Shown one piece after another: positions 1,230 through 7,989 of a stretch of DNA of 10,985 nt. Origin of the DNA: Fibrobacterales bacterium (GTDB lineage: Bacteria; Fibrobacterota; Fibrobacteria; Fibrobacterales; JAOPTW01); assembly GCA_051532055.1 (NCBI GenBank), contig JAOPTX010000106.1, forward strand, positions 1 to 10,985, written 5' to 3'. The position numbers and the translations under genes were made by a program. The stretch's first letter is position 1. The number at the start of each line of letters is the position of its first letter. A model generated the notes under the pieces. The model made no database searches. It was not told where the DNA came from and worked only from the letters and a program-made list of their open reading frames with translations.

Positions 1230-1310
1230 TGTACTCAATAAGTTCGCAAGTGTAAAAGGTTTTTAGTAATAGGTTGCCCCTAAGCTCGCTCTGTTTTTTG
1301 AATCTATATT
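1230..1310 (+). promoter_or_regulatory. Shared 28-bp motif copy 1 (1230-1257) plus TATATT box (1305-1310) upstream of cotH-1
   Basis: TGTACTCA-ATAA-GTTCGCA-AG-TGTAAAA, 22/28 identical to copy 2. TATATT starts 75 bp after the motif start. SD-like GGGGAG precedes ATG 1339. Confidence 0.7.
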
Positions 1311-1338
1311 TAAATTTCAAATAACACTGGGGGAGCCT

Positions 1339-2994
1339 ATGATACTAAGAAGAATGCAGTCCATATCGATACTATTGAAGCTCGGGATAGTTTCACCTTT
1401 TCTCATGGCGTGTGATACAGCAACAGAGGTTTCTCAGGGTAGTGATAGTTCTTCTTTCTACAGCTCTAATGTGGTTGTGGATAGTGAATTTGAATCAAGT
1501 TTGGTTAGTGTTGAAGCAAATACATCATCAGATGAATCAATTGTTCTTTCTGCAAGTTCAATTTCAAGTCAACCAGCCTCCATAAGCAGTGAATCAAGTG
1601 TCGACCAATCAGGATTGGTGAGTAGTTCAGTAACCACAGAGACTCATGATGACTCTTCTGACGAAGTTCACGAAGAGGGGCACGAAGAAAGTACCTTGTT
1701 GAGATCCGAGAATAGAGAACGAGAGAACATGTCGGGAGAAGTGTTGCTTGCTACGGATGACTGGCGGGATTCCACACGGTTTGTATTCCATCCTGATTCG
1801 CTCTATACTTATGAACTCCTCATTGACGAATCAGATTTGGCTTTTCTCGACATAGAACCACAACGAGAGGAGTATGTACCCGCATCTATAGTATTTCAAG
1901 GCGATACTGTGGATAATGTTTTAGTTCGCTATAAAGGCTCTAAGGGTGCGTGGACTCCTTGTGGTGAAGGCTCAAAATCATGTAACCTGTCTACAAAAGT
2001 TAAGTTTAATACTGATGGCAATAAAGACCGACTTTTTTATGGCCTTAAAAAATTGCAATTTCACTCTATGAATCACAGTCCTTCTCATTTAGCGGAGAAA
2101 TTTGCGTATTGGGGGTATCGGCAAATGGGTTTGGCTGCATCACGGACTGCCTATGCGCGTCTTATTGTAAATGGAACGTTACAAGGGCTCTTCTTGGTCG
2201 TAGAACAAATTGATGGACGGTTCACTCGGTATCATCTTAATGATTCTAAAGGGAATGTATATAAGCATTATTGGCCACTTAAAGATAGTAGTGCGAGTAC
2301 TGCTGATTCTCTCACTGCACATCTTGAGACTAATGAAGAAGAAGCTGATCACACCGTTGTAACGGCATTTGAAAATGACCTTATTGGTGCAGGCATGGGC
2401 AAAAATGATTTGGCGGCAGTTCTCAAGAAGTGGAATATGGCCGAGATGATTGCACGACAGGTTGTTACTGCAAATGCGGTCTATGATTGGGATGGCCCGT
2501 ATATGGGGGCATGGGATAGTGGTCATAATACCTATTGGGCAGTATTACCTGAAACTGAAAAAATAATCATGATACCATGGGATATGGATATGCCTGAATT
2601 TCCTAATTATATGATTGGTTTGGTGACTCAGTATACTCTATGGAATGGGAAAGGGGGGTATCCGGGCTGTCCGGATAAAACAACATCGCTCTTTTCTAAA
2701 TCCTGGTTTTGTTTTCCCGAAGAGTATGAAAAAGCATTTGTGGATTTAGAAAATAAAGTATTGAATAAAAGAGATCAAATGCTCACGGAGTGGTCTGACC
2801 AGATTCGTCCGGTTATGGAAGACATTGCAGAGACGTTAAAAACAGGAACTTCTGAGACCTATCCAGCCTCGACAGGATATCCTCGCTACGCCCAGAAGAT
2901 ACGTCATTGGGAAGATGCTATTGATCGGTATACTGAGATACTTGATGAACGAGAGCACGATATCAATACAATGAAAAAGTCATTAGGGCTGTAG
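1339..2994 (+). CDS. CotH kinase family lipoprotein (paralogue 1)
   Basis: Lipobox LMAC, Ser-rich then His/Asp/Glu-rich linker, and CotH motifs VRYKG, STKVKFN, FYGLKKLQF, LAEK, ARLIVNG..GLF.VVEQID, GNVYK, DWD, HNTY, IPWDMD. Confidence 0.88.
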   Translation: MILRRMQSISILLKLGIVSPFLMACDTATEVSQGSDSSSFYSSNVVVDSEFESSLVSVEANTSSDESIVLSASSISSQPASISSESSVDQSGLVSSSVTTETHDDSSDEVHEEGHEESTLLRSENRERENMSGEVLLATDDWRDSTRFVFHPDSLYTYELLIDESDLAFLDIEPQREEYVPASIVFQGDTVDNVLVRYKGSKGAWTPCGEGSKSCNLSTKVKFNTDGNKDRLFYGLKKLQFHSMNHSPSHLAEKFAYWGYRQMGLAASRTAYARLIVNGTLQGLFLVVEQIDGRFTRYHLNDSKGNVYKHYWPLKDSSASTADSLTAHLETNEEEADHTVVTAFENDLIGAGMGKNDLAAVLKKWNMAEMIARQVVTANAVYDWDGPYMGAWDSGHNTYWAVLPETEKIIMIPWDMDMPEFPNYMIGLVTQYTLWNGKGGYPGCPDKTTSLFSKSWFCFPEEYEKAFVDLENKVLNKRDQMLTEWSDQIRPVMEDIAETLKTGTSETYPASTGYPRYAQKIRHWEDAIDRYTEILDEREHDINTMKKSLGL

Positions 2995-3115
2995 GGACCA
3001 CGTCATTTTCAAATAACGCATTGATACTGTATGAGTTATTAGAGAATTTAAAGCTTATATATGCAGTATCTAACGAATTCTTTGAAAAAGGGGAACTGGT
3101 TGGTATACGGTAGGA

Positions 3116-3230
3116 TATTTGTACTCAATAATTTTGATTAAAATAGGGTGTATTTGTACTCATATCGTTCGCACATGTAAAATAACGTCAAAAAAGTGCA
3201 GTATATGTATTCATAAATTTGATTAATATA
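3116..3230 (+). repeat. Imperfect direct repeats upstream of the TIGR02147 gene
   Basis: TATTTGTACTCA exact at 3116-3127 and 3151-3162; TATATGTATTCA at 3202-3213. Copies 1 and 3 continue as ATAATTTTGATTAA and ATAAATTTGATTAA. Confidence 0.6.
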
Positions 3231-3234
3231 TATT
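3155..3234 (+). promoter_or_regulatory. Shared 28-bp motif copy 2 (3155-3182) plus TATATT box (3229-3234) upstream of the TIGR02147 operon
   Basis: TGTACTCA-TATC-GTTCGCA-CA-TGTAAAA. TATATT starts 74 bp after the motif start. SD-like TGAGG precedes ATG 3259. Confidence 0.7.
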
Positions 3235-3258
3235 ACAGTCAGACATCTGAGGCCTACT

Positions 3259-4074
3259 ATGAATATTTTTGGTTACTACAATTATCGGACCTATCTCAAA
3301 GATTATTATGAATATAAGAAATCACGAGATCGCCATTTTACCTATCGTAAATTTGCTGAGAGTGCAGGGATTAAATCACCGAGCTTGTATGTGGACATGA
3401 TTAATGGTCGAAGAAACATTACACCGGCTTTGTTACCCAAGTTTTCAATTGCGCTCGGGTTAAATGAAAAAGAATCGCAATATCTTATGCAGATGATGCA
3501 TTTTACTCATGCAAAATCTCAAGAAGCAAAAGAAGAAACGTTCAATAAAATGGCTAAAATGCTACCGAGTACCGCAAGAAAGCTTAGTAAAGATCAGCGA
3601 GCGTATTATGAACATTGGTATATCTCGGCAATACGTGAGGCCCTTGCAGTTATAAGTATCGCTGATGACTTTCAAGATCTTGCTCTATTTCTTACTCCGC
3701 GAGTCTCGCTTCCCAAAGTGAAAAGTGCAATGCAGTTGTTAATAGATCTTGATATCATTGAAAAACAGAATGGTTTTTGGCGCTCAAAAAATGGTAGTAT
3801 TAATGGTGACCACATTGATATTTTTACGATGCATGATGTACAAAAACAATTTATGGATTTAGGTAAAGCGAGTCTTGATGTTTTTACTCAAGAAAAAAGA
3901 AATGTATCGGCACTTTCTATGAGCATTTCTGAAGAAGGGGTACAACGTTTAATCCATAAAATTGATGTATTTAGAAAAGAAGCAATTGAAATTGTACGAG
4001 CTGATACTAATGAAAATCAGGTGTATCATTTAAATGTGCAATTTTTCCCGATATCTAAGGAGGCAGAACGGTGA
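3259..4074 (+). CDS. TIGR02147 family protein (N-terminal HTH, C-terminal DUF4423); putative DNA-binding regulator
   Basis: 271 aa, starting MNIFGYYNYRTYLKDYY..KK....FTYRKFAESAGIKSPS....INGRRNI, with YYEHWYISAIRE, RNVSALSMSIS and terminal VYHLNVQFFP; characteristic of this family, which is expanded in Fibrobacter and Bdellovibrio. Confidence 0.9.
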   Translation: MNIFGYYNYRTYLKDYYEYKKSRDRHFTYRKFAESAGIKSPSLYVDMINGRRNITPALLPKFSIALGLNEKESQYLMQMMHFTHAKSQEAKEETFNKMAKMLPSTARKLSKDQRAYYEHWYISAIREALAVISIADDFQDLALFLTPRVSLPKVKSAMQLLIDLDIIEKQNGFWRSKNGSINGDHIDIFTMHDVQKQFMDLGKASLDVFTQEKRNVSALSMSISEEGVQRLIHKIDVFRKEAIEIVRADTNENQVYHLNVQFFPISKEAER

Positions 4075-5420
4075 TTAGATTTATTACATTGATATTGGCT
4101 GTGCTTGTTATAAGTGCGTGTAGTGTTGTTGAGCAAGCAGGTACAACAACTGAATACCCTAATACTATAGCAGGAACCGTTGTCGATTCACTCGGGGGGC
4201 CGGTAGACGGAGCACGAGTATATATGGTAGAACAGTATGGGTGGAGTGATAAGGTGGCGGCAAAAAAATCACCGGTAATTACAACTACTACTACTGATAA
4301 GTCAGGTTCATTTGCTTTTGAGAGAAATGAAAAGAGTGCAGTAAGTATGGAGGTAGTATACGACTCATTAATACAGCAAGTCTTTGATGTACAGGGTGAT
4401 CAAGATAGTATCATGCTCGATACATTAACGTTGGTTTCAAAAAAATGGTTTAAAGGAGTGGTTGTCGATTCGTCCTATTTTAATAGGAAATTATTTATTG
4501 AGTCGACACGTCATTCCGTTGTGGTAGATGGTAAAGGCGCCTTTCTTTTTCGGGGATTGTTAGAGCATGAGTATCGTTTTTTTATCCGCGATACCATAGC
4601 TGGAACTGCTGTGAACATTTCAGATTCTATGGTAACCATTTCGGCAACAACGACCCCTTTTGAAGATTTTAAACTCAAAGATGTTCCTGATGTTACCGTA
4701 AGAAAGATTGATAGTATACCGAGCTCAGATGTTAACAAGGATACGACTGATATAATAGATACTACAGACTCTCAAGATTCGACGGTACACGATAGTACAT
4801 CGGACACCACCTCAACTCCTAATGATTCGGTGTTGAGTTTTGATAACTTTAATGATGGTAATTGGATGGGAAGTGTTGGTGATGAAACCTTTAGTTGGTA
4901 TTTTAGAATAGCATCGTATACATGGCTAAAATATAATGACGCTCAATCAATGATGGGTGAACAGTTCGACAATCGATTTAAAATTAATGCCTCCTCAGGT
5001 GTGGATGGTTATGGATTAAAGATTAAGAATTTTTATGATACGGGAGACTCTATTGCGACATGGGAGCGGAGTGGCGTAATGGCTGTGTTTGATGATAGGT
5101 CAATAAATATTTCTCAGTATTCAAAAATTCGAATTTCTATTAAAGGAACAGGTGCATTGAACATTAATATGTTTTTTCATAAGCTCATTACTCCTGATGA
5201 GTATGAAAATTTCTTTCTCTCTTCAGAGCCAATTCAAGCAGAAGCTGATTGGAAAGAGATTACGCTTAACCTTAATGATTTTTGGTATGTAAATTTTGAT
5301 GCTGAAAGAGATGGCCCAAAGCAAGAAATAAATAAACTTCTCAAAAGAGTACGGCTTATTGGTTTTACCGTTGAGGGGCAGAAATTGATAAGAATAGATT
5401 CAATCGAATTTATACGATAG
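4071..5420 (+). CDS. Lipoprotein with carboxypeptidase-regulatory-like Ig domain(s), Thr/Asp/Ser linker and C-terminal galactose-binding-like (CBM11/CIA30-like) domain
   Basis: GTG start overlaps the upstream TGA (GTGA 4071-4074) after AAGGAGG. Lipobox ISAC, AGTTTEYPN, IAGTVVDSLGGPVDGARV...TTTDKSGSFAF, linker DTTDSQDSTVHDSTSDTT, then FDNFNDG...INISQYSKIRISIKGTG...WKEITLNLNDF...IRIDSIEF. Confidence 0.7.
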   Translation: MIRFITLILAVLVISACSVVEQAGTTTEYPNTIAGTVVDSLGGPVDGARVYMVEQYGWSDKVAAKKSPVITTTTTDKSGSFAFERNEKSAVSMEVVYDSLIQQVFDVQGDQDSIMLDTLTLVSKKWFKGVVVDSSYFNRKLFIESTRHSVVVDGKGAFLFRGLLEHEYRFFIRDTIAGTAVNISDSMVTISATTTPFEDFKLKDVPDVTVRKIDSIPSSDVNKDTTDIIDTTDSQDSTVHDSTSDTTSTPNDSVLSFDNFNDGNWMGSVGDETFSWYFRIASYTWLKYNDAQSMMGEQFDNRFKINASSGVDGYGLKIKNFYDTGDSIATWERSGVMAVFDDRSINISQYSKIRISIKGTGALNINMFFHKLITPDEYENFFLSSEPIQAEADWKEITLNLNDFWYVNFDAERDGPKQEINKLLKRVRLIGFTVEGQKLIRIDSIEFIR

Positions 5421-5559
5421 AGCGAGCGTGTAGGCGCTCATTCAATGGCACTTAGGGGTATTTGCCAAACCAGATCATAATTCTTTCATATCTACGGGGT
5501 GCGAACTTTGTGGAGGTGAGAGCGTTATGTTCTTATATAGAAAAATAGAGAAGGTGTGT

Positions 5560-7464
5560 ATGAAGGTATGTATTGGTGGGCTTGGGCTGTTGTGGCTCTT
5601 ATTGGGATGCTTTAATGATTCGGTTACTGTGCAGGCTGTTGATAATCCAGGTCGTCTGAGTAGTGCAGAAATCGGTAGTGCTGATACCATACCCAAAAGC
5701 AGTCAATCTGAATTGGTATCGTCACATACGGTACATCTACCTATGTCATCATCTACAGAGTTTGGTGATGAAAAAGTAATTGATGACTATGGACCCGTTC
5801 CAGTAGATTTCACAAACTCTGACGGTGTTATCGCTATTGATCTTTCGATTAAGCCAGTACAGCATACTGAGCCATTTTCTGGGTTTGAGGGTAACAGAGG
5901 GACTGATGGAGATCCCCATCGCTACTGGTCCTCGGATATTGAAAACCTGTTGCCCTGGTATCAAGTCGACTTACAAGGAATGTATAGGCTTTCGTCAGTT
6001 GCTCTTACCGCGCGGCAAGATAAATCAAAACCATCATATCGTACTAATGTCGCACTTTGGGTGTCTAATGACCCCACCTTTATAGAATACGAAGAAATTG
6101 GGGTGATTGTTGCTGACGATCCTGATAAAAATCTAACCTATCCACAGGCAGGAGTGTGGGAAGTATCTGTACAATTTCCTGAAAGTTATCGCTATGTACG
6201 TGTCCAAAGAATACATGATGCGGGACACTTTAATTTTGGCGAGTTATCAGTTGTAGGAGAGCTCACTGGCAATGTACTTATCGCGCAGGCAGGGCCCACA
6301 ATAAAAGTAGTTGATACTGATAATAATGGAAGGGAAAAAGTGGAACTCAATGCCGAAGCATCGTTACCGGGGAACTATTCAATAGCTAGTTATCGTTGGG
6401 AGTTAAAAGATTCGGTGATATCAAATTCTAGTACTCATATGCAGGTGTTTCCTGTGGGAAAACATAAAGTAGTACTGACGATAACAGACGAGCTCGGAGA
6501 CAAGGCGGTAGATACACTTGTAGTAATTGTTAAAAAGGGAGATATTTTTGATTCTACAACCCCTTTTACTCCCATAGATCCATGGGAGCTTTCTAAAAAG
6601 GCTGGGAGGGGTATCAATATGGGGAATACGCTTGAAGCAAAAAATGGCGAAGGCTCGTGGGCACCTGCGGCTAAGGAGTACTATTTTGATGATTATCAAC
6701 AAAATGGTTTTACAAATGTGCGGATACCAATTCATTGGGGAATACGTATAGACAATGCGGGTAATGTGGATCAAAAATTTCTTAATCGAGTAGAGGAGGT
6801 TGTGGACTGGTCACTGTCTCGTGGGTTGGTAACTATAATTAATACGCATCATGAAGAGTGGGCGATTAATAACTATAGTGGAAGTAAAGCCAAACTCATT
6901 CGAATATGGGAACAGGTTGCTGAACGGTTTAAAGATAAGCCAAACCTTTTAGTGTTTGAATTATTTAATGAACCTCGTGCACCAATGACCGACAGTGATG
7001 TGAGTGATTTAAATACGATACTATTAAAAACAGTTCGGAAAACAAATCCAAAACGAGTATGTATTGTAACTGGTGGCAATTGGGGTAACTGGCGTGATCT
7101 GAAAAATGTGAGTTGGCCTGATGATCCTTACCTTTGGGCGTCGTTTCACTACTATGAACCTTTTAATTTTACCCATGAGAGTGATTATGAGTGGTCTAAT
7201 TTTGGATCACTTTGGGAGGAAATGGATGATATATTTAGTTGGTTAAAAAATACGAAAGGAATACCAGGATTTGTTGGTGAGTTTGGAGTCAATCATGGTA
7301 AGATGGCAAAGGATTGGGGGTCGGTTTTAAAGTATTATGCAACAGCGACTGAGGCGATTAATAAATGGGAAGGTGCCTATTCCGTGTGGGATGACTCTGG
7401 GTGGTATAAAGTGTACGATCGAAATAAACGTACGTTTAATGAAATTGAAGAGCAGTTACAATAA
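5560..7464 (+). CDS. GH5 endoglycanase (cellulase family) lipoprotein with F5/8-type/F-lectin-like and PKD domains
   Basis: Preferred start is ATG 5560 (MKVCIGGLGLLWLLLGC lipobox, AGAAGG upstream); the ORF track starts at 5527. PWYQVDL...YRYVRV discoidin fold; AQAGP...IASYRW...GKHKVVLTITD PKD domain; GH5 motifs RGINMGNTLEA, VRIPIHW, INTHHE, FELFNEP (acid/base Glu 6970-6972), FHYYEPFNFTH, VGEFG (nucleophile Glu 7279-7281). Confidence 0.92.
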   Translation: MKVCIGGLGLLWLLLGCFNDSVTVQAVDNPGRLSSAEIGSADTIPKSSQSELVSSHTVHLPMSSSTEFGDEKVIDDYGPVPVDFTNSDGVIAIDLSIKPVQHTEPFSGFEGNRGTDGDPHRYWSSDIENLLPWYQVDLQGMYRLSSVALTARQDKSKPSYRTNVALWVSNDPTFIEYEEIGVIVADDPDKNLTYPQAGVWEVSVQFPESYRYVRVQRIHDAGHFNFGELSVVGELTGNVLIAQAGPTIKVVDTDNNGREKVELNAEASLPGNYSIASYRWELKDSVISNSSTHMQVFPVGKHKVVLTITDELGDKAVDTLVVIVKKGDIFDSTTPFTPIDPWELSKKAGRGINMGNTLEAKNGEGSWAPAAKEYYFDDYQQNGFTNVRIPIHWGIRIDNAGNVDQKFLNRVEEVVDWSLSRGLVTIINTHHEEWAINNYSGSKAKLIRIWEQVAERFKDKPNLLVFELFNEPRAPMTDSDVSDLNTILLKTVRKTNPKRVCIVTGGNWGNWRDLKNVSWPDDPYLWASFHYYEPFNFTHESDYEWSNFGSLWEEMDDIFSWLKNTKGIPGFVGEFGVNHGKMAKDWGSVLKYYATATEAINKWEGAYSVWDDSGWYKVYDRNKRTFNEIEEQLQ

Positions 7465-7500
7465 AATTAAAATATAGAATGTGATATGAACTTTGGGATG

Positions 7501-7582
7501 AGTACGCGTTCTGTTCGCATGAGTAAACTAAGTTAAATTTAAATGATGTGTTAAAAATATGTATTTAAAAATTGTATCTTTG
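7501..7582 (+). promoter_or_regulatory. Shared 28-bp motif copy 3 (7501-7528) plus TATCTTTG box (7575-7582) upstream of a structured region with no long ORF
   Basis: AGTACGCG-TTCT-GTTCGCA-TG-AGTAAAC, 18/28 identical to copy 2. TATCTT starts 74 bp after the motif start. TATCTTTG also fits the Bacteroidota TAnnTTTG promoter element. Confidence 0.6.
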
Positions 7583-7817
7583 TTTTCAGTGATGGATCAA
7601 AGTTCTCGTCGAATGAGTTTTACATTACATAAATAGATTTACTGAATCAGCAATCCCAGAAGGCACTATACCCTCAGTGCCAGAGATTCCTGTACTACTC
7701 TAGAAAGCCCTTTCAAAGAGTAGTATGGGAATTCTTTTTACAAAATCACGATTGTAGAGATGTGGGAATACGATGTGTGTCCCTGAAGGTAATGTATGTT
7801 AGTATAGAGGGGTATCT

Positions 7818-7877
7818 ATGACTGATATATGTTATTCTGATGATCATTGTATCCCCGCATCTTACTATATGATTTAA
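7818..7877 (+). CDS. Possible 19-aa small peptide MTDICYSDDHCIPASYYMI
   Basis: GAGGGG (7807-7812) lies 5 nt before ATG 7818; TAA at 7875-7877. Both the SD and the start codon fall in predicted stems. No homology recognised. Confidence 0.25.
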   Translation: MTDICYSDDHCIPASYYMI

Positions 7878-7929
7878 CGAGGCTTATCAAGCTGAGAATT
7901 TAGCGCTTAAGATAATTAGATTAAGATAG

Positions 7930-7963
7930 AAAAAGCACAAGGAGAAAAATCCTTGTGCTTTTT
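7930..7963. terminator. Bidirectional intrinsic terminator
   Basis: Perfect 14-bp inverted repeat AAAAAGCACAAGGA-GAAAAA-TCCTTGTGCTTTTT with A/T tracts on both sides, 26 bp beyond the cotH-2 stop codon. Confidence 0.9.
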
Positions 7964-7989
7964 GTTATTTGTATTGTTTTAATTATTCT

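Follow-up and report, generated by a model that had tools for sequence, protein, structure and literature searches.

Activators of the CRP type acting in class I fashion bind a site upstream of about -60, where shifts by whole helical turns are tolerated, and pho boxes place a half-site over the -35 position. In Fibrobacter, how cellulase genes are controlled at the level of transcription is treated as an unanswered question by Suen et al. (2011, PMC3079729), who point to few recognisable regulators close to these genes. For TIGR02147 (Fsuc_second)/DUF4423, no function, binding site or regulon was found in the literature searched, supplements aside, and the sole DUF4423 match was a table row for Bd3700. 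That literature also yielded no description of the repeated motif reported here, which an earlier note on this DNA did not recognise as a described one.

Here we analysed a stretch of 10,985 bp from a Fibrobacterales bacterium (contig JAOPTX010000106.1; hereafter the window) within its source genome (G000, 181 contigs), with a related genome (G001) for comparison. The motif consists of two 8-bp half-sites one helical turn apart and a GTAAAA block; its start lies 74/75 or 85/86 bp ahead of a box of the TAT(A/C)TT type, and such sites precede about 20 promoters, mostly of exported-protein genes, as well as the clade-A TIGR02147 genes themselves. Judging from sequence, we consider it probable that clade-A TIGR02147 proteins use the motif as their operator, through which they would activate a structured RNA and exported proteins of about 11 unrelated families and would regulate their own genes.

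The motif and its genes in the window

1230..1257, + strand: putative operator copy 1, TGTACTCA / AGTTCGCA at an 11-bp period, then GTAAAA; PWM score 38.2 bits
1305..1310, + strand: TATATT, probable -10 element of the CotH gene (sequence, hexamer bias)
1339..2994, + strand: target, CotH-kinase-family protein with lipoprotein-like N-terminus (Pfam PF08757, E=7.7e-23)
3120..3127, + strand: extra upstream half-site TGTACTCA, the same in the G001 ortholog promoter (alignment)
3155..3182, + strand: putative operator copy 2, 5' of the TIGR02147 gene, presumably autoregulatory; PWM score 35.7 bits
3206..3213, + strand: proximal half-site TGTATTCA over the -35 position of the TIGR02147 promoter (sequence)
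3229..3234, + strand: TATATT, probable -10 element of the TIGR02147 operon (sequence, hexamer bias)
3259..4074, + strand: TIGR02147/DUF4423 protein of clade A, likely reader of the motif (HMM, Pfam, fold search, trees)
4071..5420, + strand: lipoprotein with carboxypeptidase-regulatory-like domain, AGTTTEYPN after the lipobox (ORF, Pfam)
5527..7464, + strand: GH5 + F5/8 type C + PKD protein, candidate for co-transcription (Pfam; same strand)
7501..7528, + strand: putative operator copy 3; PWM score 30.9 bits
7575..7580, + strand: TATCTT, putative -10 element (sequence)
7585..7970, + strand: candidate non-coding RNA (no ORF of at least 60 aa; hairpins; terminator)

The 28-mers start at 1230, 3155 and 7501, with TATATT, TATATT and TATCTT at +75, +74 and +74, and each lies between genes, on the + strand, exactly as the earlier note had read them. 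The pattern GTAC-N7-GTTC-N6-GTAA has three matches in the window against 0.04 expected, a number reached in 0/200 shuffles. In G001, copies 1 and 3 are kept with boxes at +75 and +74, and the counterpart of copy 2 is a 20.1-bit site with its box at +74. The description of the motif as tripartite holds in that all blocks are present, but they are not equivalent: the specific part is the pair of half-sites TGTACTCA/TGTTCGCA with a period of 11 bp, while GTAAA is also found without half-sites, phased to TAT(A/C)TT boxes throughout the genome (peaks of 10-15 at 42/43, 52 and 62-64 bp; background about 4). In these other GTAAA-box promoters, tandem repeats at -11/-22 are not enriched.

The local targets proposed earlier, namely the CotH gene, the TIGR02147 operon and a structured non-coding region, are likewise supported. 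The candidate RNA has hairpins at about 7662-7681, 7688-7730 and 7757-7863 and ends in a terminator (7930-7963) that may equally serve the convergent CotH gene. Its folding score is z=-9.06, to which the terminator adds, with 0/100 shuffles as good, and the first two hairpins show double-sided changes in a two-sequence alignment with G001. Rfam matches in 7585-7970 fell below the gathering thresholds (the best scored 26.4 bits for a threshold of 47 and 20.8 bits for one of 40), and no second copy was found in the source genome apart from terminator-like hairpins. The lipoprotein gene at 4071..5420 overlaps the stop codon of the TIGR02147 gene, and behind the Fibrobacteraceae orthologs of the latter comes a lipoprotein with AGT(A/V)T(D/Q)T(E/G)N; by gene pairing only, this lipoprotein is a candidate partner of the regulator. 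From one RNA run, two short contigs were obtained, which cover 4630-4783 and 5305-5494.

Promoter geometry across the genome

The earlier note took the three copies for a local regulon, which proved wrong, with at least 20 promoters on 10 contigs having the same site-box geometry. With a cut-off of 18 bits, an iterated PWM recovered 28 sites in the source genome, compared with 1-5 for five column-shuffled PWMs. At a threshold of 16 bits there were 29 sites, only 3/29 of them inside ORFs at a coding density of about 91%, and one 14-bit match lies 2.2 kb from a tyrosine recombinase on contig C46. A phased TAT(A/C)TT-type box (+74/75/86) follows 19/28 sites versus 1.7% of 19,704 random intergenic positions, and the other 9/28 lack a box at a phased position. 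The expectations of intergenic enrichment and of a fixed, helically phased distance from a transcription factor site to the box are thus borne out, the 74-75-bp spacing recurring with 86 in addition. In G001, the exact pattern has 11 matches (reversed-pattern control, 0), and a phased box was seen in 16/26 sites among the fetched loci, at distances of 74/75/85/86. Core identity between the two genomes is 92% against 53% in the flanks over 15 pairs, a figure that is inflated because the PWM picked both members of each pair. Outside the genus, the full 27-bp pattern turned up in 1/119 further genomes from this order, and most genomes searched thus gave no match to the tripartite form; an exact-pattern scan of metagenome contigs gave 0 matches.

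Upstream of 1215 genes, TATATT and TATCTT are the first and third most strand-biased hexamers (296 vs 154; 107 vs 44), and the box is therefore a generic -10-like element. Since it is the commonest strand-biased promoter hexamer, an alternative sigma factor is not needed, and of the earlier suggestion of an activator or alternative transcription factor it is the transcription factor site that stands. The motif promoters have no -35 consensus. A scan for the sigma70 consensus did no better than chance (26 vs 34.5). Taking the box as the -10 element, the helically phased site lies upstream of about -60, where a class I activator would bind. The sites behave as an operator would: they are enriched between genes, keep a fixed geometry to a promoter element, precede targets that are unrelated to each other (11 protein families, mostly exported) and are conserved in related genomes.

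The TIGR02147 protein and its clade

The earlier note named no factor; the best candidate is the TIGR02147 protein whose gene follows copy 2, together with its clade. This protein is a full-length member of TIGR02147 (273 bits vs a cut-off of 50, residues 1-267) and matches PF14394 (DUF4423; 85 vs 30 bits). Its AF2 model (pLDDT 81) predicts an XRE-like HTH (residues ~6-90) and an ArsR-like winged helix (residues ~103-186), which resemble HigA/XRE HTHs and winged helices of the ArsR type with Z-scores of 8.0-8.7, only around the level that the tool terms common. Foldseek with this model gave no match at E<=0.001, and a PDB sequence search no solved homolog.

TIGR02147 matches number 52 in the source genome, 50 in G001 and 20 in a further genome (G035). 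After two partial matches among the 52 were dropped, a motif-like half-site pair was found upstream of all five clade-A paralogs of the source genome and, on the gene strand, of 0/45 others, which had a best PWM score of 7.0 bits and no forward pairs at lag 11. One site is inverted (the C2 paralog) and another lacks GTAAAA (the C146 paralog, -0.8 bits). In trees, from which one further short match was left out, the five motif-bearing paralogs form one clade (SH-aLRT 99) that groups with Fibrobacteraceae orthologs (support 99), clade A having one copy in Fibrobacteraceae and five paralogs in the source genus. Over all paralog promoters of the source genome, lag-11 periodicity is weak (9/48 vs a 10.5% background, with lags 9 and 19 equally high), and a pairwise repeat test upstream of all paralogs of both genomes did not beat its control (17/30 vs 16/26). 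A proximal half-site is present in 4/4 promoters flagged TIGR02147 versus 3/34 others, one of which (L081) also precedes a TIGR02147 gene.

Upstream of clade-A orthologs (47-54% identity), GT(A/T)C(T/C/G)(C/T) pairs at lag 11 were found in 59/74 GTDB and 55/64 metagenome loci, counts that are not independent because kin share promoters by descent; other lags gave at most 3, and the reverse strand 0 at lag 11. This looser pattern was picked after viewing the GTDB loci, and the strict pattern gave 35/79. The 64 metagenome loci are 80 minus 16 that had no 200 bp upstream or were duplicates, and group A counts leave out L173 and four G001 loci, with duplicate upstream sequences collapsed. Repeated GTGTTC occurs in 72/74 upstream windows, while 15 other windows from these loci reach no more than 0.51, GTTCCC lies 21-24 bp before the box, and the clade-A promoters of F. 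succinogenes and F. intestinalis have the tandem. Three other TIGR02147 subfamilies have repeats of their own: TGTATC (25/28), TGTACT/GTACTA (5/9) and TTCTCA (6/10). Group A promoters lack TGTAT(C/T)A, and group B in turn lacks the group A half-site. The subfamily D half-site GTTCTCA resembles that of subfamily A, though the HTH differs, and outside A, the subfamily A pattern also scores 0.44 per locus in subfamily C and 1.4 in subfamily D. TGTTCYC-N5-GTTCYC is found in 39/61 Fibrobacteraceae genomes, with fewer control matches, some matches being the regulator's own promoter. In 30 loci it stands before PD40 (6), GH10 (2), GH8 (2) and FKBP (2) genes, and in 5 of the 30 on the strand opposite a GH5 gene, among close kin, a possible sign of a Fibrobacteraceae regulon.

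Under the preferred reading, the two-HTH protein would occupy the half-sites in head-to-tail order between about -87 and -60, or a helical turn further upstream, and recruit sigma70-type RNA polymerase to -35-less promoters in class I style. GTAAA may be a phased element of general use or else a third half-site in degenerate form, and the extra half-site over the -35 position could provide feedback at the regulator's own promoter. The regulon would be large in the genus where clade A expanded to five paralogs.

Alternative explanations

The main rival, which we regard as unlikely, is that an OmpR/PhoB-type response regulator or another conserved transcription factor binds the repeats, the clade-A genes being mere conserved targets. 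The 11-bp direct repeat found here is typical of such regulators, PhoP binding 7-bp repeats with a 4-bp spacer (PMC4832192). A half-site covers the -35 position as in pho boxes, and Trans_reg_C genes are available (7 in the source genome, 3 in each Fibrobacteraceae genome tested). However, 0/38 PWM matches of at least 13 bits lie near those 7 genes, the annotated targets include no phosphate or stress genes, and four TIGR02147 subfamilies with differing repeats would need as many outside regulators. Slightly less credible is that TIGR02147 reads the motif but represses or merely bends DNA. Its predicted folds are like those of the repressors HigA and ArsR, and the regulator's own promoters have a half-site lying over the -35 position, but 31/34 promoters not flagged TIGR02147 have no proximal half-site, the main site is wholly upstream of about -60, and the 74/75 versus 85/86 phasing and missing -35 consensus fit activation.

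It is improbable that the motif serves as a site for recombination or cassettes, or that it is a promoter module copied and carried by mobile lipoprotein genes. In G001, the same locus holds extra inserted genes, several of them preceded by a site of their own, with homology to the window resuming at 1229. Sites cluster on contigs C40, C106 and C93. Two spacer pairs are 68-74% identical, but the median over 190 pairs is 0.34, and with 11 unrelated target families this argues that the sites are not one duplicated promoter. Furthermore, the repeats are direct rather than inverted, the -10 spacing is kept in helical steps, and 0/5 tyrosine recombinases are on contigs bearing a site that scores 16 bits or more, in an assembly that is fragmented. 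A LexA/SOS box like the alphaproteobacterial GTTC-N7-GTTC, whose spacing is the same (PMC3091678), can be dismissed with near certainty, given best scores of -6.6 and -8.5 bits upstream of lexA and recA, a TGCAC-N4-GAGCA box at recA with similar boxes by eye at lexA, and no repair genes among the targets.

Significance and comparison with known systems

A broader reading, which we offer tentatively and think rather doubtful as a whole, is that TIGR02147 is the main transcription factor family of Fibrobacterota, so far unrecognised, with paralog-specific half-sites and an outside signal fed in by lipoproteins, clade A activating secreted enzymes. It would comprise 20-50 paralogs in every genome, each of which would form a new kind of signalling pair with an exported lipoprotein, and secreted-enzyme targets would be GH5, CBM35 and CotH proteins here and possibly GH5, GH10 and GH8 in some Fibrobacteraceae. 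A two-HTH family of 20-50 members with predictable subfamily-specific operators makes the question of Fibrobacter cellulase control testable, and cultured F. succinogenes and F. intestinalis offer a testing ground. The window is a clear case, bringing together a defined site, about 20 target promoters and a candidate regulator in one place.

The system shares with OmpR/PhoB boxes (pho box, PhoP, KdpE) the head-to-tail half-sites at an 11-bp period, a predicted winged helix in the candidate reader and a half-site over -35 in the regulator's own promoter. Unlike those regulators, the candidate reader has no receiver domain and carries an extra N-terminal XRE-like HTH, and the main site is at about -87 to -60. 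That position upstream of about -60, together with a -10 element lacking a -35 consensus, is shared with CRP-type class I activation, from which the direct repeat in place of a palindrome and an unrelated protein fold set it apart. A parallel in family history is the ROK expansion of Thermotogae (PMC3553997), which likewise involves lineage-expanded paralogs with diverged DNA sites near carbohydrate genes; it differs in fold, TIGR02147 has no recognised sugar-binding domain, and each TIGR02147 gene is paired with that of an exported lipoprotein.

Extent of the motif

The window is a complete contig (C106) of a 5.17-Mb genome, with its nearest named homologs assigned to Fibrobacterales, and holds genes for an LruC/DUF4842 protein, CotH, TIGR02147, a lipoprotein, a GH5 protein, a second CotH and DUF2271. 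The positions that the earlier note gave for three 28-bp motif copies and their downstream TAT(A/C)TT boxes agree with the sequence, and the tripartite pattern has three matches here against 0.04 expected. The features needed below are:

1230, + strand: motif copy 1
3155, + strand: motif copy 2
3206-3213: proximal half-site
3259-4074: TIGR02147 gene (candidate regulator)
7501, + strand: motif copy 3
7775-7783: GTGTGTCCC within a candidate RNA

After iteration on the genome the matrix became TGTACTCA-n3-TGTTCGCA-n3-GTAAAA. It finds 28 sites scoring 18 bits or more, whereas five column-shuffled matrices find 1-5, so what had been proposed as a local regulon is instead genome-wide. Of 29 sites scoring 16 bits or more, three lie inside ORFs, in a genome with a coding share of about 91% (crude ORF calling), and a phased TA(T/C)(A/C)(T/C)T box follows 19 of the 28 sites, at +74 (6), +75 (10) or +86 (3), compared with 333 of 19,704 random intergenic positions. 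A same-genus relative (G001) has 11 exact pattern matches and no control matches, with a phased box at 16 of 26 sites (16 fetched loci).

Promoter architecture and putative target genes

TATATT and TATCTT are among the top strand-biased hexamers before 1215 genes, which makes a housekeeping -10 element the most likely identity of the box. The motif promoters show no -35 consensus. GTAAA alone is phased to boxes across the genome at 42/43, 52 and 62-64 bp, also outside motif sites, and no tandem repeats precede these lone elements, which may be a general upstream promoter element in this lineage. With the box generic and GTAAA phased elsewhere without tandem repeats, the motif-specific part is the pair of half-sites repeating every 11 bp, which spans about -87 to -60 or lies one helical turn farther up.

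Twenty promoters have their box between +72 and +86; downstream of them lie 18 ORFs of 11 unrelated families (CotH x6, TIGR02147 x2, GH5, IgGFc-binding, CBM35, DUF5060, VWA and unknowns), and nearly all targets but TIGR02147 begin with a signal-peptide-like stretch, as judged by eye. Many of the genome's 29 CotH-family genes are lipoprotein-like; only six have a site, and these are scattered across the CotH tree. Spacers are unrelated between sites (median identity 0.34).

TIGR02147 proteins as candidate readers

The genome has 52 TIGR02147 matches, and in the upstream regions of the 50 inspected, motif-like pairs precede five paralogs:

C106: 35.7 bits
C155: 28.4 bits
C177: 27.4 bits, spanning a 22-bp overlap between contigs, with a box at +75
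C2: 25.9 bits, inverted
C146: -0.8 bits, GTACGCA tandem without GTAAAA

These five form a single clade (clade A; SH-aLRT 99), and among the remaining 45 the best score is 7.0 bits and none has a forward pair at 11 bp. Two broader tests over all paralogs were weak or null. The predicted fold combines an XRE/HigA-like HTH with a winged helix like that of ArsR; the Z-scores, 8.0-8.7, are close to what the tool calls common. We predict with good confidence that TIGR02147 proteins read the motif.

Fibrobacteraceae orthologs, one per genome in 54 of 56 Fibrobacteraceae-level genomes, cluster with the five paralogs (support 99). Their promoters carry a related 11-bp tandem, seen at 59 of the 74 loci from GTDB and 55 of the 64 from metagenomes (35 of 79 under a stricter pattern), with other lags at three or fewer and none on the reverse strand at 11 bp, although related promoters are alike by descent and these counts carry shared ancestry. 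In these loci the repeat is restricted to the upstream region, where 72 of 74 have it; other parts of the loci give 0.51 or less. Ortholog promoters also have a lone half-site placed 21-24 bp ahead of the box, matched by the proximal half-site in the window and in this genus's other regulator promoters; it is rare in target promoters, in a count that includes orthologous, non-independent pairs. Three other TIGR02147 subfamilies have repeats of their own: TGTATCA (25/28 loci, two copies 73-74 bp apart), TGTACTA (5/9) and GTTCTCA (TTCTCA in 6/10). The half-site of subfamily D resembles that of clade A despite a differing HTH.

The Fibrobacteraceae clade-A genes (L136-L211) look leaderless, the box ending about 8 nt before ATG at many of the loci, and they have in common a conserved GGGATGGGATTGGGTGTTCC block about 160 bp upstream. 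In some Fibrobacteraceae genomes (loci L327-L331, L316/L318, L332/L333) a tandem resembling that of clade A stands 63-83 bp away from GH5/GH10 starts on the opposite strand, and another precedes a GH8 gene. Hallerella-like clade-A loci under records titled as unrelated taxa (L136, L137, L138, L144, L146, L151) are likely binning or labelling errors and are not taken as transfer.

From these sequence patterns, we consider it likely that a clade-A dimer would bind two half-sites head-to-tail and, depending on helix face, activate promoters without a -35 consensus, with feedback at the regulator's own promoter via a half-site over -35. The lipoprotein that overlaps the regulator's stop codon may supply a signal; this pairing is kept in the six Fibrobacteraceae-level loci read.

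Candidate RNA and contig oddities

Copy 3 precedes an ORF-free stretch of about 385 nt that folds strongly (z -9.06), with hairpins kept in the relative through double-sided changes (two-sequence alignment) and no Rfam family. The candidate ncRNA suggested in the earlier note remains a candidate small RNA. ACACA/GACACA-type hexamers are strand-biased before genes of this genome, and the complementary GTGTGTCCC is conserved in the relative; pairing between it and gene leaders is speculative. At the start of the contig, positions 1-114 and 663-776 are identical 114-bp copies in inverted orientation, probably an assembly artefact that truncates the LruC/DUF4842 gene.

Alternative readings and known systems

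Repeats of 11 bp are bound by OmpR/PhoB-type regulators (PMC4832192), and such regulators are present in this genome, but none of their genes lies near a motif site, and we regard them as improbable readers. Barely open is the reading of the sites as cassettes, which gene gain and loss beside sites in the relative would favor. In the relative's ortholog of the window (L071), three further genes encoding 375 aa, 695 aa (collagen-like) and 815 aa are inserted at the same locus, and the new intergenic regions hold additional motif copies. A LexA box is ruled out: the motif is missing upstream of lexA and recA, which bear a different box. Their TGC(A/T)C-N4-G(T/A)(G/A)CA-like boxes (upstream of C15:234784 and C37:20453) resemble the Fibrobacter LexA box.

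Full-text searching, with subscription journals mostly outside coverage, returned nothing on TIGR02147 or Fsuc_second and one table row on DUF4423, and a listings-level search of literature on Fibrobacter regulons and promoters did not return the motif. The operator and its regulon are real and previously undescribed, and they probably belong to an uncharacterised regulator family.
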